Below are positions 12,465 to 55,048 of a stretch of DNA of 64,000 nt, piece after piece. How positions within the stretch are numbered: the first letter of the stretch is position 1; each line of letters begins with the position of its first letter. The stretch comes from Eubacteriales bacterium (GTDB lineage: Bacteria > Bacillota > Clostridia > Oscillospirales > CAG-272): contig JAZPYO010000022.1 of the NCBI GenBank assembly GCA_045544195.1, positions 12,681 to 76,680 on the forward strand. Reading direction: 5' to 3'. The translations under genes were made by a program, and so were the position numbers. The notes under the pieces are model-generated. The model saw nothing but the letters and a program-made list of their open reading frames with translations. It had not been told where the DNA came from and ran no database searches.

Positions 12465-14315
12465 ATGCTCCCATTCCATATAGATCGGTATTCACCGTTT
12501 ACAATTAAAAAGACGGTGCTTTCAAAAACAAGCTATAATTGTGCGTTTGAGGAGGGGAAGATAAAAATTTCCCTTCTCTGTCCGCGTATATACTGTCTTA
12601 ACGGATGTTATCTGAAGCTTGATCACGATTTTGAAAGCAAAACAGACGTAGTAAAAATGCGTTATTGCGGCATTGAGAACGGATGCGATCTTTATACCTG
12701 CACCGTTTCTCCTTGCTCAGGACTGTATTACTTTTATTTCACCGTGTTGTGCGACGGCAAGGAATACACAGTGGAATCATGCGGCGATGAAAAGCACGGT
12801 CGTATAACAGAAGAATATCCCGACAAGTTCCAGCTTATGATTTACAAAACTGAATACACTCCTGTCAAATGGTTTTCCGACGGGGCGATGTATCATATTT
12901 TCGTTGACCGTTTCTGCAGATCGGGCCGCAAGATCCCCGTAAGAGATGATGCGGTAATGATAAACGATTGGTACGGCGGAAAGGTAGAATATGCAGAGTA
13001 TCCCGGTCAGCCTCTGAAAAACAACACGTTTTTCGGCGGTGATCTGTACGGAATATGCAGTAAGCTGGACTATCTTTCGTCTTTAGGTATAACAACGCTT
13101 TACTTATCTCCTGTTTTCAAAGCATACTCCAACCACAAATACGATACGGGTGATTATATGGCGATCGACGAAATGTTCGGCGGTCAGAAGGCTTTCAAAA
13201 AGCTCGTTAAGGAAGCTCACAGCAGAAATATGAAAATAATTCTTGACGGAGTTTTCAACCACACGGGCGATGACAGTATATACTTCAACAAATACAAAAA
13301 ATACGATAGCTGCGGCGCTTACAACAGCAAGAAAAGTCCTTACTATACATGGTATGACTTTTCGGAGTATCCCGATAAATACAGAAGCTGGTGGGGCATA
13401 AGCATTCTTCCCTCTCTTAACCACACCTGCCCGTCACTGCGTGAATTTTTGTGCGGTGAAAACGGTGTTATCAGATATTGGCTGCGGCAGGGTGCAGACG
13501 GATGGCGGCTTGATGTTGCCGATGAATTGCCCGAGGATCTGCTTTTTGATATAAAAAAGGCAGCAAACGCAGAAAAGCCGGGATCACTCGTTATCGGCGA
13601 GGTATGGGAGGATGCTTCAAATAAAATAGCATATTCATCAAGAAGACACTATTTTGAAGGCAAGGCTCTGGACGGGATAATGAATTATCCGCTCAGAAAT
13701 GCCATCATATCGTATTCCAAGTACAGCGATGAGGGTGCAATGAGCTATGCCTTGACGATACTTTCCCGCCACTATCCTCAGTATTCCTTGTTGAACACGA
13801 TGAACTTTCTGGGAACACATGACACAGAAAGAATTCTGACTGTTCTCGGAGGAGACGATGCAGCAGATGCGTCAGGCTCACAGCTTTCGGAAATGAGAAT
13901 GACGCCGCGTCAGCTCGAAGACGGCAAAAAGCGTTTACGGTTTGCTTTTGCACTTTTAGCCTGCTGCCCCGGAGTTCCTTGCATATATTACGGTGACGAG
14001 GCAGGCTGCGAGGGTTACCGTGATCCATTCAACAGAAGACCGTACCCGTGGGGAAAAGAGGATACAGAGCTTGTTGAACATTTTAAGAGCATTCTCAAAA
14101 TGAGAAAAAAGAACAGAGCTCTGAGATGCGGCAAGACCGACGTTGTATATGCAGAAGACGGCGTTCTGATATTCAGACGCTATATCGGTAAACACGGCGT
14201 TTTGTGTATATTCAACGGCAATCAATACAATAAATGCGTTTATATCGGCGGTGAAAGGATCGCGCTTGACGGTATGTCCTTTACACTGAAGGAATACGCG
14301 GAAAGGAATCAATGA
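12465..14315 (+). CDS. GH13 amylopullulanase/neopullulanase-like enzyme (probable glycogen debranching role)
   Basis: [66 protein letters not shown]. Confidence 0.9.
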
Positions 14316-34018: not shown

Positions 34019-35176
34019 ATGGCAGAAAGCATACTTGACGCTTACAAGCACGAGCGTCACGAAGAAACTGTTATTGACACAACAAAAAAATTGAAGATAG
34101 GTATCATCGGTACGGGCTGGATAGCAAGTGCTCATATGGAAAGCTACTTGAAAATGCCCGATGTTGAGATCGTTGCAGGTGCCGATCTTATTCCCGGTAA
34201 GGCAGACGATTTTTTCAAAAAATACAACATAAATGCCCGCACTTATCTTTCGCACAAGGAAATGATAGATGCCGAGCCTGAATTGGATGCCGTAAGCGTT
34301 TGCACCTACAACGCAACACACGCTGAATGCACAATATACGCCCTTAAGAAAGGTCTGCACGTACTGCTTGAAAAGCCTATGTGCGTAACTCTCGAGGAAG
34401 CTATTGATATCTGCCGTGCGGAAAAGGAAAGCGGAAAGGTGCTTTCTATCGGATTCCAGCCCAGATTCGATGCAAACATGAAAATGATCAAAAAGCTCGT
34501 TGAAAGCGGTGAGCTTGGTAAGGTTTACTATATTCAGACAGGCGGCGGCAGAAGACGCGGTATTCCCACCCCCTTCGGAACCTCCTTCATTGAAAAGGAA
34601 ACGGGCGGTATTGGTGCATTGGGTGATATCGGGTGCTATTCGCTTGATATGGTCATGAACGCTATCGGATATCCGAAGCCCCTCACGGTTACGGGATATA
34701 AGTCAGACTTTTTCGGAAAGAACCCCGAATATATGCCCTGCCCCGAGTATGCCGAAAAATTCGGTGTTGACGATTTCGGTGCAGGATTTGTAAGACTTGA
34801 GGGCGGAATAATCATCGACTTCAGAATTGCATGGGCTATGCACGTAGACACCCCCGGTGACACGATAATCTTTGGTACTAAGGCTGCTTTACGTATTCCG
34901 TCTACAGACTGCTGGAACGGTACTGTCGGCGGTCCGATGATACTGTATCATGATGTATGCGGAACACAGACGCAGACCGAAATACCGATACTTAAGAACT
35001 CTGAAAAGGATTCGCTGTTTGACCTTAAGATACGTTCATTCCTTGATGCGATCAAAAACGGAACTCCTTCCCCTGTTCCTTCAAGCCAGATCATATACAA
35101 TCAGGCTATTTTATCGGGTATCTGCCGTTCTGCAGAGCTCGGTCACGAGATCCAGATCGAAATTCCCGAAATTTAA
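34019..35176 (+). CDS. Gfo/Idh/MocA family oxidoreductase
   Basis: IGIIGTGWIA, HVLLEKPMC, GALGDIGCYSLD; start ATG 34019 after AAAGGAG. Confidence 0.92.
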   Translation: MAESILDAYKHERHEETVIDTTKKLKIGIIGTGWIASAHMESYLKMPDVEIVAGADLIPGKADDFFKKYNINARTYLSHKEMIDAEPELDAVSVCTYNATHAECTIYALKKGLHVLLEKPMCVTLEEAIDICRAEKESGKVLSIGFQPRFDANMKMIKKLVESGELGKVYYIQTGGGRRRGIPTPFGTSFIEKETGGIGALGDIGCYSLDMVMNAIGYPKPLTVTGYKSDFFGKNPEYMPCPEYAEKFGVDDFGAGFVRLEGGIIIDFRIAWAMHVDTPGDTIIFGTKAALRIPSTDCWNGTVGGPMILYHDVCGTQTQTEIPILKNSEKDSLFDLKIRSFLDAIKNGTPSPVPSSQIIYNQAILSGICRSAELGHEIQIEIPEI

Positions 35177-35194
35177 TTTCTCAACAGAATATCA

Positions 35195-35233
35195 AAAGCT
35201 CCCGACGGTCACAAGATCATCGGGAGCTTTTTC
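35195..35233. repeat. Terminator hairpin copy A (direct repeat with 36418-36455)
   Basis: AAAAGCTCCCGACGGTC-ACAA-GATCATCGGGAGCTTTT between convergent genes. Confidence 0.85.
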
Positions 35234-35239
35234 AAGCTC

Positions 35240-35647
35240 TTATTCTTTCGTAAATGTGCCTATGTCCATGCTCTTTTTATCACATTCATCTCTTTCCTTG
35301 TCATACTCGACTATTACGTCATAGTTTGCAGTATGAGTATGTCCGTAATCGTCAACCACGCTTACTGTTCCGCTGACTTTATACATAGTCGTTTTATCAG
35401 GGTCGATGTCATCTAAATATTCATAATTTATATTTCTTACCGAGCCGTATGTGCAGTTTTTCCATTTGATATTATCACTGCCTAATTTTGATGCCGTTAC
35501 CTTTGCCATAAGGTTTACCGTAGCACAGTCCTTTGCTTTTTCTTCAGGGGTTCTAGCGGTCGTATCATCCGAATTGCCGCAACCTGATAAACCAAAGCAG
35601 GATGCAAACATCATAATAACCAATAATAAACTAAGAATTCTTTTCAT
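35240..35647 (-). CDS. Small lipoprotein (135 aa), function unknown
   Basis: MKRILSLLLVIMMFASCFGLSGC lipobox; RBS AAAAGGAG; start reset to 35647. Confidence 0.8.
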   Translation of the reverse strand: MKRILSLLLVIMMFASCFGLSGCGNSDDTTARTPEEKAKDCATVNLMAKVTASKLGSDNIKWKNCTYGSVRNINYEYLDDIDPDKTTMYKVSGTVSVVDDYGHTHTANYDVIVEYDKERDECDKKSMDIGTFTKE

Positions 35648-35680
35648 TTTAACTCCTTTTTGATAGTGAAACACCATACG

Positions 35681-35708
35681 ATATCTGATTGAATCGCCGA
35701 TCAGATAT
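35681..35708. other. Intergenic stem-loop inside the cassette
   Basis: ATATCTGAT...ATCAGATAT; the T-run is on the plus strand only. Confidence 0.5.
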
Positions 35709-35711
35709 TTT

Positions 35712-35945
35712 TTAATTTTGGTTTTTGTTTGAAGTGTCTTTTTTAAAAATAAAATAAAGGAATACTGCACACACAGGAATAGACAGTATCATTCCGAGTA
35801 TTAAAGATGAAACAAGACACGCAAAAAATCCGCCTATCGCAAGAGGTATCTTTCCTTTGATAGCACCGCATATCGCCGGAATTGCACCTATGGCCGCCCC
35901 CATTATGAGAGCACCGATAATTGCTCCAAAAGCAAAGCTTTCCAT
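35712..35945 (-). CDS. 77-aa Gly/Ala-rich small membrane protein
   Basis: Almost entirely hydrophobic (2-3 TM) with a KK tail; RBS AAAGGAG. Confidence 0.75.
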   Translation of the reverse strand: MESFAFGAIIGALIMGAAIGAIPAICGAIKGKIPLAIGGFFACLVSSLILGMILSIPVCAVFLYFIFKKDTSNKNQN

Positions 35946-36008
35946 AATTAATCTCCTTTCGTTTTTTTAAATTTAAGAAATTCTCGGATAAAAAACTTCT
36001 TACGACTT

Positions 36009-36052
36009 ATTATAACACCAAACGGTGTTATTTGTCAACACCTTTTGGTGTT
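36009..36052 (-). promoter_or_regulatory. Consensus sigma-A promoter overlaid by two palindromic operators
   Basis: TTGACA (36033-36038)-18 bp-TATAAT (36009-36014) on the minus strand; AACACC-N4-GGTGTT at 36014-36029 and 36037-36052. Confidence 0.8.
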
Positions 36053-36096
36053 TTTTATATAATAAATGTGCAGAATTATTAATGGAGGTTTTTTAT

Positions 36097-36294
36097 ATGT
36101 TTATTTATCCGAGAGTCAGAGATCTTCGTGAAGACCGTGATCTTACACAAAAGGATATAGCAAATATGCTTAATGTTCAGCTCACTGTATATCAAAGATA
36201 CGAAAGAGGCGAGCGTGAGCTTCCGCTGTGGGTTGCTATTAAATTAGCTGATTTTTACAAGGTGACGCTTGATTATCTTGTTGGGAGAGATTAA
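36097..36294 (+). CDS. Small stand-alone XRE-family HTH regulator (65 aa)
   Basis: RVRDLREDRDLTQKDIANMLNV...YQRYERGERELP...LADFYKVTLDYLVGR; RBS GGAGG. Confidence 0.92.
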   Translation: MFIYPRVRDLREDRDLTQKDIANMLNVQLTVYQRYERGERELPLWVAIKLADFYKVTLDYLVGRD

Positions 36295-36417
36295 GATCGT
36301 CTGTAATTGCATTTTCGTATGCTGTTGCTGATCTTCGTTATAACGATATCGGTAATAAACTAAAAATATCCAAACGAAAAATATATTTTCCAAGGTATTT
36401 ATTATAGGAGAGAATAT

Positions 36418-36455
36418 AAAGCTCCCGACGGTCATTACGATCGTCGGGAGCTTTT
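36418..36455. repeat. Terminator hairpin copy B (direct repeat with 35195-35233)
   Basis: AAAGCTCCCGACGGTC-ATTAC-GATCGTCGGGAGCTTTT between convergent genes. Confidence 0.85.
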
Positions 36456-36461
36456 GGTGTT

Positions 36462-39400
36462 TTATTTAACTGTAACCTTCATAGCTGTATACGGCGGAGT
36501 ATAGCTGTTTGTCATCGCTCCGTTTCCTATTACGGCTGATTTATTACAGCCTCTTACAACAACGTCACCGTCTGATGTGATATAAGCGGTATAATACGTT
36601 CCTGCCGATGCTGAAATACAGTCTGAAGCAATAAGAACAGGTGTGTTCTTCGTCTTTTTATCCTCTGATATCTGACCGTAGCCGTTGAGACCGAAGCCGT
36701 ATACGTTTCCGTTATCGGTAAGGTACACTATATGCTCATCCATAATTGAAGCACTTACAACACGGTTTGCTATCTTGTTCATCTTACCGTTGGAGTTACC
36801 TGCCGTAAAGGTAGATGTATCTCTCCAGCCGAAGTAATACAGAACGCCGCTCGTACTGATATACAGGGAATTGTGCTGTCCTGCATAGACACTCGACGCA
36901 TCGCTTGCGAGCTTATACGGCTCTTTGATGACCTCGGGTGCAGATGACGATATTTTGCTCCATCTGTTGTCACCGAGTGCATACAGTCCGCCGTCTGACG
37001 TAACGTAAAGTGTGTGACGTCTTCCTGCGGCAATATCGACAGCTCCTGTCGCTATCTTCGTTATCGTCGTTACCATTCCTGTGTAATTTTTCGTTCCGAG
37101 CTGTCCGTACGCGTTATTTCCGCATCCGTATACATCACCGTTTTCCGCAAGCAGCAGCAAATGGTCAAGACCTACGGCGATCTTTTTGAATTTCACGCTC
37201 GTCTCGATCTTTGCAAGAACTGTTTCATCTGACGTTCTGCCGAGCTGTCCTGCGACGTTTGAGCCTATTGTATAGACATCGCCGTTATCCGTAAGCACCG
37301 CGGTCATGGGGGTATCGCCCTCTGTACCGCCTCTGCTCATTTCTACCTGCTTTACACCCGTCATAACGAGCATGGGAGCGCGTATCGTTTTATCAACATC
37401 AATTCCGCATTGAGCTATATCGTTTTCACCCCATGCGTAAAGATCACCGTTTCCGTCAAGAACAAATATACTGCGTGAGCCTGCTGTAACTGCGGGTACT
37501 ATCTTATAATCGCTCTTGGTTACAAGGCCTATGACTGTTATTCTGTCCGTAATATTGACCTTTACAGTCTGCGTTGAATAAACGGTTTCCTTTCCGCCGT
37601 CTGTCACCGTCTTTATACCGTTCAGAACATATCCTGACTTAGGAACGATCTTTATAGTGACACTTGAATTTTCATCCAATATCTCGCTGTAGCCCGTTTT
37701 TGTTATTTGCTTACCGTTGATATACAGATCCGCTTTTGAAAGATCGAGTGAAACGCTGAGCTTGCTCGGTTGAATACCGAAATAATTGTTCATTGTTTCA
37801 ATTGCATATTTCGGGCGTTGCTTAAGGAAGGTACGGAGAGTATTTATCTGCGAATTCCATCTGCTCACAGAGCCGCCGTCGCCCGGCCAGCGATTGAAAT
37901 GAAGCGGCATTATCGGCTCAATAGCCTTTGCATACTCATCAAGAACAGGCGATGTCTTTTCGTATGTGAAAAGATTTTCAACAGCATATGTAAACCGTGC
38001 AATAAACGAGTCCTTAAAATCGGGGTTTTCAAGCAATGCACACATCATACTGCCCGCAACTGTATTATAGTTAAGAGCCTGTGCAAACATATCCGTTGTA
38101 TATTCGCATCCGAGTCCCATACCTGAGTCCATATCGCTCATAACGTAACGCCATTTCGTATCAAGCCCCGACGGGTCGGAGTTTGATTTATTACGCCATA
38201 CCTTGACATTATTTGACGGCCAGTCGGTATTGCCGAAATACATACTGCATACGAAGAAATCAACGAAGCTGTCAAGATCTATTCTGTCAGAAACGTATTT
38301 GAAATACGTGGAATTGGAAAGATCGTGGGAAAGCATATAGTTGACAAGGTCGTGGAATACCTTTTCATCTCCCTCAACACCCTCGTTGAGCTGATACGGC
38401 TCATTTACCGACCAGTTTGTAGTAAGAGGCGACGGTGCTTCGAGAATAACGAGGTTTTCTTCAAGAACGCCGTAGTGCTCTTCAAAATATTTTGTATCGT
38501 ATCTTTCTCTTATGTTGTATACGCCCCAGAATTCACCGTTTACAAACAACAGCGACGGGCGGTATGCCATCGTGCTTGCATTAGTTCCAACGCACAGCGC
38601 CTGCATAAGAGCATCTCTCAGATGCGTTACGCTGGAATCGTTACCCGAATTTCTCAAAAGAATACGCTTGAACTCGGTAACATTATCCTGTGCGCGTCCG
38701 TGGAAAATATCATATCGCAGCTTTGACGGATTATTCACAACACTTGTATCAGCGTCTGCTTTGAAGTAGACACGCATTGATTTTGATGCCATACCCAAAG
38801 AGCCGTTACCGTTCATAGCTATCTCAACATATGACGAGGAAACGAGCGTTCCGTCAGATTCGAACATTTCAAGATAGGATGTCCGTCTTTCCTTCTGTCC
38901 AAACGGATTGTCCATTACAGTATGGTAAATACCTCTGCTGTCGCTTACAAAATCATCAGCAGGCAAGCTGAGCGACACGAACGGAACATTATACGTTTCA
39001 GCGCAGTCAGGAATTATAAAGTAGGAATTTGTAACAACATTTGATGATTCCTTACCGTTTGTTGCATACGCCTTGAAAACATGCGCGCCGATAGAATTCC
39101 TTGACGGCATAGCGGTATTATTCAGTACTGAGTTCTTATTCGTAAGATATCCCCACGTTTTAGAGTTTGTAAGAATGAGCGGTATTCCGCCTGTATAAAG
39201 TCTGCCGTTTTTTCTGGGGTCTGACCCATCGCGTGTATAATATATCTTATATCCTTCAGCAGCGGACATCGTAAGAGTAAACGTCGAATCGTAAAATCCG
39301 CTTGCATGAGAAAACTCGACCACGTTTGCGAACGCTGACAGGTATGTATTTCTGTCGCCGCCCGAATACTGCGGCCTTACATCTGTAATGTCAGACGGCG

Positions 39401-40259
39401 TCATTTGTGAATAATCTACCGTTTTAAATGTGGAAGATATCGTGTTTTCGCATCTGTATGCTGCCTTTTGCTTTGAAAGTCCGGAAATAACGTTACGGTC
39501 GGAATTATCAGTAGCGGCGGCTGCAATATAATATGCGTGCACCTTGGCGCTTTTGGATAGATCATCGGTTGCTGAAAGTGACGAGCTTTTATCCGTTATC
39601 GCCAGCTTTACCGTTTTGTTATCAATAACGATGTTCCATTCCGTATCGTAGTGATCGATACGCATAACTTCGTACTTACTTTCGTATTTTTCGCCGTTTT
39701 TCCCCTTCGCCTCAGCGCATCTGATAAGATATCTGCCGTAAGCAGCTATTTTCGCGCCGCTCGGAAACTGCATTTTCACATAGCCTGCATCGCCGCCTGT
39801 CATATAAGATATGGCAAGTGCATCCAATGCTATCTCTTTATCCGAGATATTGTAAAGCTCTATAAAGCTGTGCTTTATCGGTGTGTCGGTATTGTAGCCC
39901 GTACCGTATATCTGCTTGAATACAACGTTTTTGTACGAAGCTTCATCAGGCTTTTCAATTTCGGGATAAGTAACCTCAGGCGGTGTCTGTGTTTGTGTGC
40001 TGCCCTGAGTTGTGCTGCCCGTCTGTGATGAACCGTCGGTATCGGCATCGGTAGGTACATCCGTCGGTGTATCTGACGGCATATTCGTCTGTTGATCCGC
40101 ATTATGTGTGCTGTCACCGTCTGTGGCGGCATTGTCGGTATCCTCAATCGGAGTCGTTACATTAACAAGTGTTGTGCTCTGAGTGTCATTACCGCCATTG
40201 CACGCCACGAAAGAAAACAGCATAAATGCAGCAAGCATAAGGGATAAAAATTTTTTCAC
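36462..40259 (-). CDS. 1265-aa lipoprotein: lamin-tail domain, chitobiase-C/FN3-associated Ig-like domain, CotH kinase, RCC1 repeats
   Basis: Lipobox FSFVAC; T/D-rich linker; FIELYN (LTD); IYYTRDGSDP; CotH LRNSGND, GVYNIRER, NTDWPSNN, WRYVMSDMD; RCC1 G.LYAWGEN..Q.G, IAVGLDH, IAAGRRH. Confidence 0.85.
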   Translation of the reverse strand: MKKFLSLMLAAFMLFSFVACNGGNDTQSTTLVNVTTPIEDTDNAATDGDSTHNADQQTNMPSDTPTDVPTDADTDGSSQTGSTTQGSTQTQTPPEVTYPEIEKPDEASYKNVVFKQIYGTGYNTDTPIKHSFIELYNISDKEIALDALAISYMTGGDAGYVKMQFPSGAKIAAYGRYLIRCAEAKGKNGEKYESKYEVMRIDHYDTEWNIVIDNKTVKLAITDKSSSLSATDDLSKSAKVHAYYIAAAATDNSDRNVISGLSKQKAAYRCENTISSTFKTVDYSQMTPSDITDVRPQYSGGDRNTYLSAFANVVEFSHASGFYDSTFTLTMSAAEGYKIYYTRDGSDPRKNGRLYTGGIPLILTNSKTWGYLTNKNSVLNNTAMPSRNSIGAHVFKAYATNGKESSNVVTNSYFIIPDCAETYNVPFVSLSLPADDFVSDSRGIYHTVMDNPFGQKERRTSYLEMFESDGTLVSSSYVEIAMNGNGSLGMASKSMRVYFKADADTSVVNNPSKLRYDIFHGRAQDNVTEFKRILLRNSGNDSSVTHLRDALMQALCVGTNASTMAYRPSLLFVNGEFWGVYNIRERYDTKYFEEHYGVLEENLVILEAPSPLTTNWSVNEPYQLNEGVEGDEKVFHDLVNYMLSHDLSNSTYFKYVSDRIDLDSFVDFFVCSMYFGNTDWPSNNVKVWRNKSNSDPSGLDTKWRYVMSDMDSGMGLGCEYTTDMFAQALNYNTVAGSMMCALLENPDFKDSFIARFTYAVENLFTYEKTSPVLDEYAKAIEPIMPLHFNRWPGDGGSVSRWNSQINTLRTFLKQRPKYAIETMNNYFGIQPSKLSVSLDLSKADLYINGKQITKTGYSEILDENSSVTIKIVPKSGYVLNGIKTVTDGGKETVYSTQTVKVNITDRITVIGLVTKSDYKIVPAVTAGSRSIFVLDGNGDLYAWGENDIAQCGIDVDKTIRAPMLVMTGVKQVEMSRGGTEGDTPMTAVLTDNGDVYTIGSNVAGQLGRTSDETVLAKIETSVKFKKIAVGLDHLLLLAENGDVYGCGNNAYGQLGTKNYTGMVTTITKIATGAVDIAAGRRHTLYVTSDGGLYALGDNRWSKISSSAPEVIKEPYKLASDASSVYAGQHNSLYISTSGVLYYFGWRDTSTFTAGNSNGKMNKIANRVVSASIMDEHIVYLTDNGNVYGFGLNGYGQISEDKKTKNTPVLIASDCISASAGTYYTAYITSDGDVVVRGCNKSAVIGNGAMTNSYTPPYTAMKVTVK

Positions 40260-54514: not shown

Positions 54515-55048
54515 ATGGAATCGAAGCTTAAGCTCTTGAAGCTCCTTGCTGACGAAACACGTCTTGAGATCCTCAACATCCTTTTAAAAGAGGATTCCTA
54601 CGTGGAAAAGATTGCCTGCGAGCTGTCTTTAACACCTGCGACGATTTGTTATCATCTCAAAAAAATGGAAGCAGCAGGCGTGGTAAATTGCTCTCGATCA
54701 CAGTTTTATATTATCTATTCCCTGAATCGCAAAGTATTTGATAAACCACTGTTTGAGTTAATAAAAAAAGATGAAGAAATCGTCAACACCGAAGAAAAAT
54801 ACAAAAAAGAAGTCTTATCGACCTTTTTCAAATACGGACGACTGATACATATACCAACGCAAAGAAAAAAACGCGAGATCGTGCTTTCACATATACTTGA
54901 AAAATTCGATTTTAACCGCGAGTATTCGGAAAAAGAGGCCAACGGGATCATTTTGTGCTTTCACGAGGATTTTTGTACCATCAGACGTGAAATGATTGCA
55001 TTTGGTATGATGACACGCGATCACGAAATATATAAACGAATTAAATGA
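54515..55048 (+). CDS. ArsR/SmtB-type HTH regulator with C-terminal DUF2087
   Basis: LKLLADETRLEIL...IACELSLTPATICYHLKKME; FFKYGRL..IP.QRKKR..VL...YSEKE.N.II...HED...IRREMI..G.M.R. Confidence 0.85.
   Translation: MESKLKLLKLLADETRLEILNILLKEDSYVEKIACELSLTPATICYHLKKMEAAGVVNCSRSQFYIIYSLNRKVFDKPLFELIKKDEEIVNTEEKYKKEVLSTFFKYGRLIHIPTQRKKREIVLSHILEKFDFNREYSEKEANGIILCFHEDFCTIRREMIAFGMMTRDHEIYKRIK

Follow-up and report, generated by a model that had tools for sequence, protein, structure and literature searches.

The window, that is, the whole stretch of 64,000 nucleotides which was analysed, raises the following question: how did three small genes come to lie between two copies of one terminator hairpin, inside a convergent pair formed by a Gfo/Idh/MocA oxidoreductase gene (Gfo) and a CotH gene, with no recombinase gene beside them? 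The preliminary description of this DNA had mapped a lipoprotein gene and a small membrane protein gene, both read leftwards from a promoter/operator region, and an XRE gene read rightwards, the unit being bracketed by two near-identical hairpins in direct orientation. This gene map is correct, and the positions and orientation of the hairpins are confirmed (Table 1). The insert extends from ~35232 to ~36410 (~1.2 kb) and holds only three ORFs, those of the XRE protein, the membrane protein and the lipoprotein. Its GC content is 35.5%, against 46.3% and 44.9% in the flanking genes, which makes it lower by about 10 GC points.

Table 1. Position, strand and character of the features at the Gfo-CotH site (coordinates of the window)
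Feature	Position	Strand	Sequence or evidence
Left flanking gene, Gfo/Idh/MocA oxidoreductase	34019..35176	+	Pfam GFO_IDH_MocA, E 2e-26
Left direct repeat	35186..35231	.	AGAATATCAAA + hairpin A
Hairpin A	35195-35231		AAAAGCTCCCGACGGTCacaaGATCATCGGGAGCTTTT
Cargo gene 2, 135-aa lipoprotein	35240..35647	-	signal peptide and lipobox LSGC
12-bp inverted repeat between the cargo genes	35680..35709	.	
Cargo gene 1, 77-aa glycine-rich membrane protein	35712..35945	-	ORF
Cargo promoter TTGACA, 18 nt with TG, TATAAT	36009..36038	-	12/12 consensus matches
Predicted twin operators, 2 x AACACCnnnnGGTGTT	36014..36052	.	inverted repeats
XRE promoter TCAACA-17-TATAAT	36035..36063	+	back to back with the cargo promoter; conserved across loci
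65-aa XRE-family helix-turn-helix repressor	36097..36294	+	Pfam HTH_3, E 9e-13
Non-coding spacer, XRE stop codon to right repeat	36295..36410	.	common to sister species
Right direct repeat	36411..36455	.	AGAATAT-AAA + hairpin B
Hairpin B	36418-36455		AAAGCTCCCGACGGTCattacGATCGTCGGGAGCTTTT
Right flanking gene, secreted CotH-kinase-like protein with RCC1 repeats	36462..40259	-	Pfam CotH, E 7e-45, plus RCC1

Hairpins A and B, 37-38 nt long and near-identical, stand one on each side of the insert, hairpin A starting 18 nt after the Gfo stop codon. Their resemblance extends ~10 nt further on the 5' side, via AGAATAT[C]AAA, and the whole is a direct repeat of 46-47 nt with 87% identity over an alignment of 47 columns. 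The copies are direct and not inverted, because a G.U pair which is invariant in every hairpin copy keeps one orientation. Both palindromes are simple stems of 13-16 bp with A and T tracts, of the terminator type, and T-runs flank both of them on both sides. Whichever strand is taken, their folding is strong (-24 to -31 kcal/mol, z -6.7 to -7.8): the two strands give -24.2 and -25.2 kcal/mol for hairpin A, and -30.7 and -25.3 kcal/mol for hairpin B. Among strains, the stem of hairpin B is constant and its loop is variable. In the genome G001 a concerted change is seen, a T-A pair standing in both copies where both copies of the window have G-C. Altogether there are eight distinct variants of the hairpin, which differ by compensatory changes in two pairs and by one G.U change; the hairpin appears to be selected as a structure. 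With its GC-rich stem, its U-run and these compensatory changes, it has what characterizes intrinsic (Rho-independent) terminators, and termination is predicted. The left repeat would end transcription in both directions, that of Gfo (+) and that of the cargo operon (-), and the right repeat would do so for XRE (+) and CotH (-).

Between the repeats, the cassette has a compact regulatory region. The XRE protein, whose helix-turn-helix domain scores 48.4 bits with PF01381 (cut-off 23), resembles phage repressors, and its gene is preceded by a ribosome-binding site GGAGG 6 nt 5' of the start codon. One AACACCnnnnGGTGTT palindrome sits within the spacer of the cargo promoter, while the second overlaps the -35 boxes of both the cargo and the XRE promoters. 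The twin palindromes are the most conserved DNA of the family (>90% in 79 loci) and are present in the locus L036 too; the cargo promoter is also conserved at more than 90% across the 79 loci. We infer that XRE binds the AACACCnnnnGGTGTT palindromes and represses the adjacent promoters.

The cargo is less easily placed. The 77-aa membrane protein belongs to a widespread unnamed family of small proteins (177 homologues, all unnamed), some members of which carry a SHOCT or zinc-ribbon tail; members without a linked XRE gene also exist. The 135-aa lipoprotein has no Pfam family, its PHROG matches are weak and all to families with no assigned function, a single homologue cluster was found for it among 5.8 billion proteins and an exact-protein look-up returned no record; it seems close to an orphan. 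Its AlphaFold model (pLDDT 73), a helix on a 4-stranded sheet, has no significant match in the PDB. The search for a cargo function found nothing in Pfam, NCBIfam or PADLOC, and we would guess at an accessory role in the envelope or in phage exclusion. As regards an addiction module of the toxin-antitoxin or RM-controller type, the matches to antitoxin and C-protein profiles were weak and all below the cut-offs. A known RNA family was rejected for the cassette and the spacer, where the Rfam search gave no match, only sub-threshold chance scores.

What does the site look like without the cassette? The preliminary description had expected that removal of the unit would leave a convergent pair with one hairpin, and had suggested looking for such an empty site in relatives. 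Two conspecific metagenome contigs (L143 and L145) carry exactly this arrangement of Gfo, one hairpin and CotH. Their intergenic region reads Gfo stop-TTTCTCAACAGAATATCAAAAGCTCCCGACgattGTCGGGAGCTTTTGGTGTTTTATTTAAC-CotH stop, their Gfo protein is 100% identical to that of the window and their flanks are 97-99% identical. The same Gfo protein is encoded on conspecific contigs of both the filled and the empty type; within the species, some strains have the cassette and others do not. At the same spot, the genomes G002 and G009 have empty sites, which measure 50-98 bp in the distant congeners, and G003 to G008 have unrelated inserts. The empty alleles and the low GC content lend support to the earlier proposal of an insertion at a shared terminator with duplication of the site, every junction receiving a terminator. 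Low in GC and variable in its presence among strains, the cassette is, by all appearances, foreign DNA.

On its left the hairpin of the empty site is flanked as copy A is, and on its right as copy B is, and it is shorter than both (13-bp stem, loop GATT): the inner GGTC...GATC stem, present in both hairpins of the window, is missing from it. The empty allele is not simply one copy of the repeat, because its hairpin is this shorter form, and it is probably a product of deletion or excision and not a virgin target.

The filled site has a history of its own. Other strains and the sister species have kept the XRE gene and the hairpin with a different cargo, and the block made of XRE, spacer, hairpin B and CotH has its ortholog in that species. 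This makes the insertion old, and the event cannot be reconstructed at this locus. Turnover of the cargo beside a conserved XRE-hairpin block is seen between the window and G001, in the conspecific strains L134, L135 and L131, and between G009 and G004. In this last comparison an additional copy of the repeat lies on the variable cargo side, and repeats may therefore also arise during cargo replacement. Two of the cargo breakpoints in conspecifics fall exactly at 36008, beside the cargo -10 box; the others are at 35962 and at 35627, the latter (in L131) mapping beside the 12-bp inverted repeat of Table 1. An RNA-mediated exchange of cargo, which the two breakpoints at 36008 had suggested, was dropped because of the other two. 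The unit which persists is the operator-XRE-hairpin block, the adjoining cargo being often swapped.

The terminator-site duplication proposed for this locus gains further weight from other loci, where the same architecture recurs with repeats unrelated in sequence from site to site. There are at least 391 relatives of the XRE gene in species-representative genomes. We counted a flanking repeat when the 350 nt downstream of XRE matched the 4 kb upstream of it at more than 36 bits, a control with reversed sequences never exceeding 26.3 bits. Such repeats occur at 19 of 78 XRE-homologue loci from ruminant-gut Clostridia, as against 12 of 367 control genes drawn at random from the window's genome. 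The enrichment is about 7-fold (Fisher p = 1.5e-8; p = 6e-5 with one clade collapsed), and 59 of the 78 loci, about three quarters, have no flanking repeat. The locus G009:C51 is a further independent case of a repeat-flanked cassette.

Across loci, the repeats are 18-112 nt long and contain the local terminator, sometimes together with the 3' end of the neighbouring gene. Some of them are composed of 12-30 codons from the end of a GGGtGRT-family gene plus its terminator. At this gene, the start of the repeat depends on the XRE clade and lies either upstream of the stop codon, by 12 to at least 30 codons, or downstream of it, by 17 nt or 53 nt. The distance from the XRE stop codon to the start of the repeat is 0-76 nt in most other cassettes. 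Conservation across the 79 loci is confined to 36008-36294, breaking off sharply at the first of these positions and at the stop codon of XRE, and these 79 loci have no conserved insert ends in common. The XRE gene of the window nests, with 96% SH-aLRT, among cassettes located at a different gene; the XRE module has changed site. In another species, the locus L147 has two tandem cassettes delimited by three identical hairpins. A second instance of the cassette lies at a radical SAM / TraX locus; an empty site for it was sought in the window's genome, which is not syntenic there. An exact-protein look-up of the gene flanking L092 returned no record.

We consider it probable that the unit is an inserted cassette with target-derived repeats and without a recombinase of its own; the specific insertion chemistry which follows is at best a tentative proposal. 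A small self-repressed cassette would have been inserted into the bidirectional terminator common to the convergent Gfo and CotH genes, in an insertion with "long and variable target duplication". Host functions of DNA breakage, repair or replication would act at the hairpin-forming site, either by staggered or cruciform-type breakage with fill-in or by template switching, and no element-encoded or site-specific recombinase would take part. The duplicated hairpin would supply a terminator to all four units, namely Gfo, the cargo, XRE and CotH. A promoter of consensus strength would drive the membrane protein and the lipoprotein unless XRE represses it; a dimer of the 65-aa XRE protein on the two AACACCnnnnGGTGTT operators would shut both its own promoter and the cargo promoter, and the foreign cargo would therefore arrive silent. 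After insertion, the two repeat copies would be homogenised, and the operator-XRE-hairpin block would become a resident anchor whose neighbouring cargo is exchanged by homologous recombination. Since each repeat is a palindrome, the cassette could be lost, by recombination or by snap-back pairing between the outer arms, and a single hairpin would be left.

Four other explanations have to be weighed against this one. The one that survives best, which we nevertheless hold to be unlikely, is an insertion-duplication of the Campbell type: a circular cassette with one copy of the hairpin or gene end would arise by repeat-by-repeat excision in a donor, would be taken up, and would recombine with the terminator of an empty site, which regenerates two repeats. 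Repeats of 32-112 nt are long enough for RecA-dependent exchange, the repeat copies are homogenised within one genome, tandem arrays with identical hairpins exist, and filled and empty alleles coexist in the species, all of which speaks for this route. Of seven cassettes at the GGGtGRT site, two have a downstream repeat copy nearer to the gene end of another genome than to that of their own, as if it travelled with the element; yet in four of the seven the best match of this copy is in its own genome. Moreover, such a recombination does not place a cassette at a non-homologous new site, whereas one XRE clade is found at different sites with unrelated repeats, and the inner stem present in both copies of the window is absent from the empty allele. 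Whatever made the first copy, this route could account for spread within a species.

Distinctly less probable is a site-specific integration by a recombinase acting in trans. The cassette would be a passenger, comparable to a CIME or a satellite, of an ICE, IME or phage whose att sites are these terminators or gene 3' ends, or else it would be moved by an IS30-type (IS1630-like) transposase. Direct repeats that take in a gene's 3' end are what attL and attR classically look like, and elsewhere in the genome there are 14 tyrosine-recombinase and 6 serine-recombinase matches. The cassette of L090 holds a fragment which, by eye alone, resembles a serine recombinase in its C-terminal helix-turn-helix tail. 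For IS1630, the targeting of inverted repeats of variable length, with their duplication, is also reported (in a title cited by PMC2853133, and in PMC3317919). Against this, the absence of an integrase from the window, already remarked in the preliminary description, extends to the whole 104.7-kb contig (C22), which has no integrase, tyrosine recombinase or resolvase. Within 4 kb of 80 XRE loci, a search sensitive to relatives of 16 recombinases encoded in the genome of the window found a recombinase-like gene at two loci only, in both cases outside the cassette. A linked integrase or resolvase was rejected on these two results. The repeats are unrelated between sites, and their boundaries vary between independent events at one and the same gene; the term att-like, which had been applied to the site duplication, is not supported in the integrase sense. 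For a transposase, the cassettes offer neither terminal inverted repeats nor conserved ends.

We give slightly less credit still to the explanation that nothing was inserted: the XRE operon would be an old resident whose terminator was copied locally or kept identical by gene conversion, and the strains without a cassette would be simple deletions from one copy to the other. The orthology of the XRE-hairpin-CotH block between two species, the concerted evolution of the copies and the resemblance of the empty allele to a deletion product all agree with it, as does a third copy of the hairpin found elsewhere in the genome of a look-alike locus (L103). It is contradicted by the empty sites of 50-98 bp in more distant congeners, by a GC content some 10 points below that of the flanks, by the presence of the XRE module at different sites within one well-supported clade and by the ~7-fold enrichment of flanking repeats at XRE loci. 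Repeats which include a coding 3' end are, besides, inexplicable as a terminator kept for its function.

The last explanation, that the hairpins belong to a dispersed family of REP/BIME-like palindromes which flank the operon by chance, is scarcely credible: the hairpins are palindromic, lie at gene ends and are, as REPs are, the target of an IS3-family element (within the loop of the left-repeat hairpin in strains L126-L128), but the window contains two occurrences of the pattern GCTCCCGA-N-TCGGGAGC (0 expected from 100 shuffles) and the whole 2.28-Mb genome just these two, which flank this cassette, while a fuzzy search of the genome with mismatches allowed found no further copy, 400 genomes of the family have none, and the sole match in a scan of JGI metagenomes comes from an unrelated high-GC organism. 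One look-alike stem (GCTCCCGACAGAT...) is present at C48 of the genome and may be counted on the REP side. For this genome the exact and fuzzy scans refute the REP/BIME explanation, unless unassembled copies exist. The dispersed palindrome considered in the preliminary description is discarded with it, and its observation that the 64 kb contain no other copy is extended to the genome; neither a genome-wide palindrome family nor a lack of empty alleles, the two findings that would have spoken against an insertion, was encountered.

To which known class does an inserted cassette with target-derived repeats belong? Nobusato and colleagues reportedly described in 2000 (Gene 259:99), from genome comparisons, the insertion of RM genes with long target duplication. 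Such RM genes are inserted with repeats of variable length above 30 bp and without mobility genes, by a mechanism which is not known (Furuta, Abe and Kobayashi 2010, NAR, PMC2853133), and the authors of the 2010 paper still had no experimental evidence to offer of how long target duplication works. Of the features by which these authors recognised such inserts, the following are found here: direct repeats above 30 bp, no mobility gene, an insert below 20 kb and a repeat which is not multi-copy. Like the RM inserts, the cassette is a small unit with no mobility gene, between direct repeats of more than 30 bp which are unique in the genome; in both, the repeat often overlaps the 3' end of a neighbouring gene, its length varies by event, and tandem amplification through the repeats is possible. 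In the RM inserts, the sequence of the repeat stands as a single copy at the empty site in a related strain; at the Gfo-CotH site, the empty allele of L143 and L145 has one hairpin with matching flanks, in the shorter form that lacks the inner stem. Unlike them, our cassettes carry a twin-operator XRE repressor with the envelope genes it is predicted to repress, their duplicated target is usually a terminator hairpin with boundaries often at the base of the stem, they are one sequence family at hundreds of loci in uncultured gut Clostridia, and their cargo is swapped while the repressor block stays.

Other known systems are more distant. The CIMEs of Streptococcus thermophilus are cis-mobilisable remnants without an integrase, flanked by att sites, which lie at the 3' end of fda. 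Like them, the cassette is a unit without integrase whose direct repeats may include the 3' end of a housekeeping gene; however, the fixed att core of a CIME is also that of an ICE which integrates at the same site, while no such partner was found here, and our repeats differ by site, with boundaries which vary even at a single one. A site-specific element or CIME fits poorly on these grounds, namely that the search of the 80 XRE loci for relatives of the 16 recombinases gave no att core shared with an integrase-bearing element and that the boundaries are not fixed per site. Minimal mobile elements, or integration hotspots between conserved genes, were reportedly defined in Neisseria by Saunders and Snyder in 2002. 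The term minimal mobile element is used in PMC3082526 and PMC1538595. As in these, a slot between conserved genes holds different cassettes or nothing, according to strain or species, with exchange via homologous recombination of the flanks; a duplicated target is not part of their definition, whereas here the terminator is duplicated and the repressor module travels between slots.

Hairpins are also targets of insertion sequences. IS1630 of Mycoplasma fermentans is said to have been described by Calcutt et al. in 1999. IS1272/TnSha1 of staphylococci recognise terminator-type hairpins by structure and not by sequence (PMC4923244), and the same recognition, with duplication of an inverted repeat of 16-26 bp, is attributed to IS1630 in PMC3317919 and in a title quoted in PMC2853133. 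These elements have a transposase and terminal inverted repeats, while the cassette has no transposase and no defined ends; TnSha1 deletes part of the hairpin without duplication, while the duplications of the cassettes reach 112 nt. A transposon or MITE was rejected, conserved terminal inverted repeats being absent and the duplication length not being fixed (18-112 nt). Integron cassettes resemble ours in that imperfect palindromes separate promoter-proximal cassettes, in arrays such as L147. Unlike integrons, our loci have no IntI and no attC architecture, their palindromes are terminators copied from the target, and each cassette brings its own promoter and repressor. Judged by the recombinase genes and by the shape of the palindromes, the integron cassette was rejected, because the contig has no tyrosine recombinase and the palindromes are simple terminators. 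The closest class, in our best reading, is the recombinase-free "insertion with long target duplication", here in the form of a family of self-repressed cassettes.

One may go further, although we regard this as a speculation with a minor chance of being right: the operator-XRE modules of ruminant-gut Clostridia would be undescribed non-autonomous, recombinase-free mobile cassettes in which DNA structure replaces an enzyme of their own. They would enter at hairpin-forming terminators, and the whole palindrome would be copied to both sides by cruciform- or hairpin-directed breakage with fill-in, or by template switching during replication. The resulting pair of palindromes would be direct and inverted repeats at once, on which the replication and repair of the host could stack cassettes into arrays, exchange cargo and excise the unit cleanly by snap-back. 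With a tight repressor built in, whatever cargo arrived could be received safely.

Horizontal gene gain is mostly explained by integrases, transposases or homologous flanks. To these the present locus adds a large family of sequence-related events, with at least 391 XRE loci, about one quarter of those tested having scars that can be seen. Alleles that are filled, empty, cargo-swapped or tandem occur in it within single species, and this range of alleles makes it possible to map junctions, to date events and to assay excision and insertion. The locus also points to a principle of design, in which a foreign gene comes with its own tight repressor, as predicted here, and the duplication of a terminator leaves each neighbouring transcription unit insulated, provided that the hairpins terminate as predicted. 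Since other strains of the species lack the cassette and related cassettes bear a like scar at other sites, the locus is a clear example of the poorly understood gain of genes without an enzyme.

The cassette lies between hairpins A and B, which have a 16-bp stem in common; apart from the loop, a single stem base distinguishes them, as the preliminary description stated. Its gene map of the insert (a lipoprotein gene and a membrane-protein gene read leftwards from a promoter with operators, and an XRE gene read rightwards) was equally accurate. The similarity between A and B extends about 10 nt further 5', which gives a direct repeat of 46-47 nt, 87% identical. On both strands, the hairpins fold with an energy of -24 to -31 kcal/mol; each of them has runs of A and of T, as in bidirectional intrinsic terminators. 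The insert has 35.5% GC, versus 46.3% and 44.9% in the flanking genes.

Features of the cassette and of the hairpins that bound it (window coordinates)
Feature	Position	Strand	Remark
Hairpin A	35195-35231		starts 18 nt past the Gfo/Idh/MocA (Gfo) stop codon
Lipoprotein gene, 135 aa	between hairpins	-	cargo
Membrane-protein gene, 77 aa	between hairpins	-	cargo
Promoter TTGACA-18-TATAAT, perfect	between hairpins		directed at both cargo genes
Two AACACCnnnnGGTGTT palindromes	between hairpins		overlap the cargo promoter and a second, opposing promoter
XRE (HTH_3) gene, 65 aa	between hairpins	+
Hairpin B	36418-36455		ends 6 nt short of the stop codon of the convergent CotH/RCC1 gene (CotH)

The hairpin pattern has two matches in the window, A and B themselves (0 expected by chance), so that the earlier statement that no other copy exists in 64 kb held. 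A scan of the entire 2.28-Mb genome (98% complete), which had been proposed as a check, returned the same two matches, and fuzzy search found no further copy. In 400 other genomes of the family the pattern has no match, and its sole match in the JGI metagenomes searched comes from an unrelated high-GC organism. The option of a dispersed REP-like palindrome is hence refuted for the window's genome.

Judged by this anatomy, an XRE dimer would bind the twin operators and repress its own promoter as well as the cargo promoter, which is of consensus strength; only loss or inactivation of the repressor would then let the cargo be expressed. The left hairpin would terminate Gfo and the cargo operon, the right one XRE and CotH. 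The 77-aa protein belongs to a family without a name (177 members detected), not linked to an XRE gene in every case, while the 135-aa lipoprotein is nearly an orphan, with a predicted alpha+beta fold without significant structural neighbour. Both have weak matches only, to phage protein families annotated without function. Between the cargo genes, a 12-bp inverted repeat (35680-35709), adjoined by a natural cargo breakpoint at 35627, could be an internal attenuator or processing site.

We compared the site in same-genus species whose flanking genes are about 80% identical to those of the window. The Gfo-CotH interval measures 50 bp with one unrelated hairpin in G002, 98 bp in G009 and 266 bp in G003, and holds small ORFs in G004 and G005. 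This means that the spot is a variable slot. In L024/L025/L032 (from G007/G006/G008) it contains BspA-like leucine-rich-repeat surface-protein genes (358-1040 aa) without duplicated hairpins. In the sister species G001 (about 90% identical) both hairpins are present, together with an operator-XRE-spacer block orthologous to the window's (89.5% identity). The cargo there is a different lipoprotein gene (349 aa), and homology to the window restarts a short way upstream of the cargo's start codon.

An exact-protein look-up gave two metagenome contigs whose Gfo protein is identical to the window's and whose flanks are 97-99% identical. In both, 53 nt separate Gfo from CotH, TTTCTCAACAGAATATCAAAAGCTCCCGAC-GATT-GTCGGGAGCTTTTGGTGTTTTATTTAAC: one hairpin only, which is flanked on the left as copy A is and on the right as copy B is. 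This is the arrangement, Gfo and CotH converging on one hairpin, which was expected from removing the unit. These contigs form their own haplotype, about as distant from filled strains as those are from each other. Since empty and filled contigs occur in one species, the cassette is a within-species presence/absence polymorphism. The empty site found is nevertheless not quite the one foreseen, as just the outer 13 bp of the stem are present in its hairpin: the inner stem GGTC...GATC is extra in both filled copies, in two species. This is at odds with a simple picture of "one repeat copy". As the filled state is common to the sister species, the empty allele would most simply be a deletion. Its end points fall within A's left arm and B's right arm, where a deletion would be expected if these two arms paired and the cassette formed the loop.

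Contigs 98-99% identical to the window from XRE into CotH diverge abruptly further left, at 36008 in the conspecific contigs L134 and L135 and at 35627 in L131, which comes from the sister species. In 79 related loci, only 36008-36294 (operators, promoters and XRE gene) is conserved, with sharp limits on both sides. This shows that the persistent unit is operator-XRE followed by a terminator. The cargo side is swapped often, the replacements being always secreted or membrane proteins. The two hairpin copies of G001 are mutually identical and carry a compensatory G-C to T-A pair relative to both window copies; the two repeat copies evolve in concert. Within the species, one pair of hairpin A runs through the series C-G, C.A, T-A and a second pair has a U.G change, which fits selection on an RNA stem.

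Three conspecific contigs (L126 1550-3130, L127 and L128 1-60) carry an IS3-family element (orfA/orfB; ends TGAACCGACCCCC... and ...GGGGTCA) in the loop of hairpin A, at 35207. In L126 the element's second junction falls within the loop of another hairpin; this one, AAAGCTCCCGACAGATTTATGATCT, resembles A and is situated downstream of a Peptidase_M23 gene (C48:61820 in the window's genome). The element looks like one that targets loops of terminator palindromes; IS1397 and ISKpn1 target palindrome loops in REPs. The IS may have led to a chimeric assembly at the L126 join: all compared genomes are MAGs or metagenome contigs, in which some joins, such as these junctions, may be artefacts.

A scan of species-representative genomes gave at least 391 loci encoding XRE relatives, almost all of them from MAGs of ruminant-gut Clostridia. 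Of these, 80 were taken for analysis and 78 could be tested for repeats, in a comparison of the 4 kb that precede the XRE gene with the 350 nt that follow it (positive above 36 bits). Nineteen of the 78 were positive, versus 12/367 random genes of the window's genome in the same test (Fisher p = 1.5e-8; p = 6e-5 with the largest clade collapsed); a reversed-sequence control reached at most 26.3 bits. The repeats (18-112 nt, unrelated in sequence between sites) are composed of the local terminator and, in nine loci, also of the last 12-30 codons of an adjoining GGGtGRT-family gene. In most loci the right-hand repeat begins 0-76 nt past the XRE stop codon; the inserts measure 0.7-3.2 kb. On a contig from the window's genus (G009:C51), an XRE cassette lies between two copies of a AAAACACATATATC... 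hairpin, and the syntenic locus of G004 has one copy only.

In the operator-XRE tree the window's module falls inside a clade of GGGtGRT-gene cassettes (96% SH-aLRT). As the GGGtGRT gene is absent from the window's genome, the module has changed sites. The segments duplicated at this gene differ between XRE clades, which implies repeated independent events with variable duplication. The 3' end of the gene, or the sequence just downstream, is a hotspot (L050-L092 and others) for at least 20 of the 80 XRE cassettes, in both orientations and from several XRE clades.

Contigs of the species to which locus L103 belongs have one or two tandem cassettes, separated by two or three identical hairpins. 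The contigs concerned are L147, L149 and L150 (2650-4055), L148, and L151 (= L103). Where there are three identical 45-nt hairpins, they bound two tandem cassettes: the first holds a lipoprotein (93 aa) and a 57-aa gene, ribbon-helix-helix-like by eye and without a Pfam family, the second a lipoprotein (101 aa) and XRE. The lipoproteins of the two cassettes are 69% identical, with no difference in the last 45 residues. The alleles in this species have one cassette, two cassettes, or a fused form without the middle hairpin.

A screen with 16 query proteins found recombinase-like genes near 2 of the 80 XRE loci, both outside the cassette. The window's contig has none; the reported lack of an integrase in the window thus extends to the whole contig. 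The repeats vary in length and boundaries and have no associated recombinase or conserved terminus. They appear to be copies of the target sequence rather than element ends. The proposal of an att-like integration at a terminator with site duplication stands in that the repeats are target-derived, but variable boundaries oppose an integrase att site. The pattern is that of "insertion with long target duplication", the closest known phenomenon (Nobusato 2000; Furuta 2010, PMC2853133), described for RM genes without its mechanism being established there. Hairpin-only repeats have their boundaries at or near the stem base, which suggests that breakage was directed by the structure and filled in, or that a stalled fork switched template; repeats with coding sequence call for a broader process, staggered or replicative. 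Cargo exchange, homogenised repeats, tandem arrays and cassette loss would follow from homologous recombination after insertion. CIMEs and the minimal mobile elements of Neisseria are related concepts.

Campbell-type integration of a circle with one hairpin can spread the cassette among strains sharing a site, and may account for two cases of an imported-looking downstream repeat copy, but it is unable to found a new site. An IS30-type transposase offers a mechanistic precedent in IS1630, reported to duplicate inverted repeats, although such an enzyme requires element ends and the cassettes have none. Among hairpin-targeting elements, IS1272/TnSha1 are related but delete part of the hairpin (PMC4923244), while IS1630 is reported to duplicate it (PMC2853133, PMC3317919). 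A trans-acting integrase mobilising a CIME- or satellite-like passenger is argued against by the variable repeat boundaries and the absence of partner elements. A resident operon with a locally duplicated terminator is compatible with concerted evolution of the repeats; it fails to account for the empty sites of other species, the contrast in GC, the moves between sites and the duplicated gene ends.

In an incomplete coverage of the literature we found no account of XRE-operator cassettes bounded by duplicated terminators. Other repeat-bracketed units occur in the window's genome. Perfect 29-nt REP-like repeats (CGGACAGTCGAGGACGCCTGTCCCTACAA; C37:217-245 and 1003-1031) lie on either side of an IS200/RAYT-like Y1 transposase gene. 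An array of HTH-domain genes with one nucleotidyltransferase-like gene (by eye), separated by repeated 47-200-nt intergenic segments (C18:42000-46200), may be another recombinase-free cassette array. A duplicated terminator hairpin brackets a 552-aa gene (C11:53020-53071 and 54806-54854), and a perfect 49-nt repeat brackets a 328-aa gene, glycosyltransferase-like by eye (C3:12480-12528 and 13560-13608). These last two single-gene units with direct repeats indicate that target-duplicating insertion is not limited to XRE cassettes.
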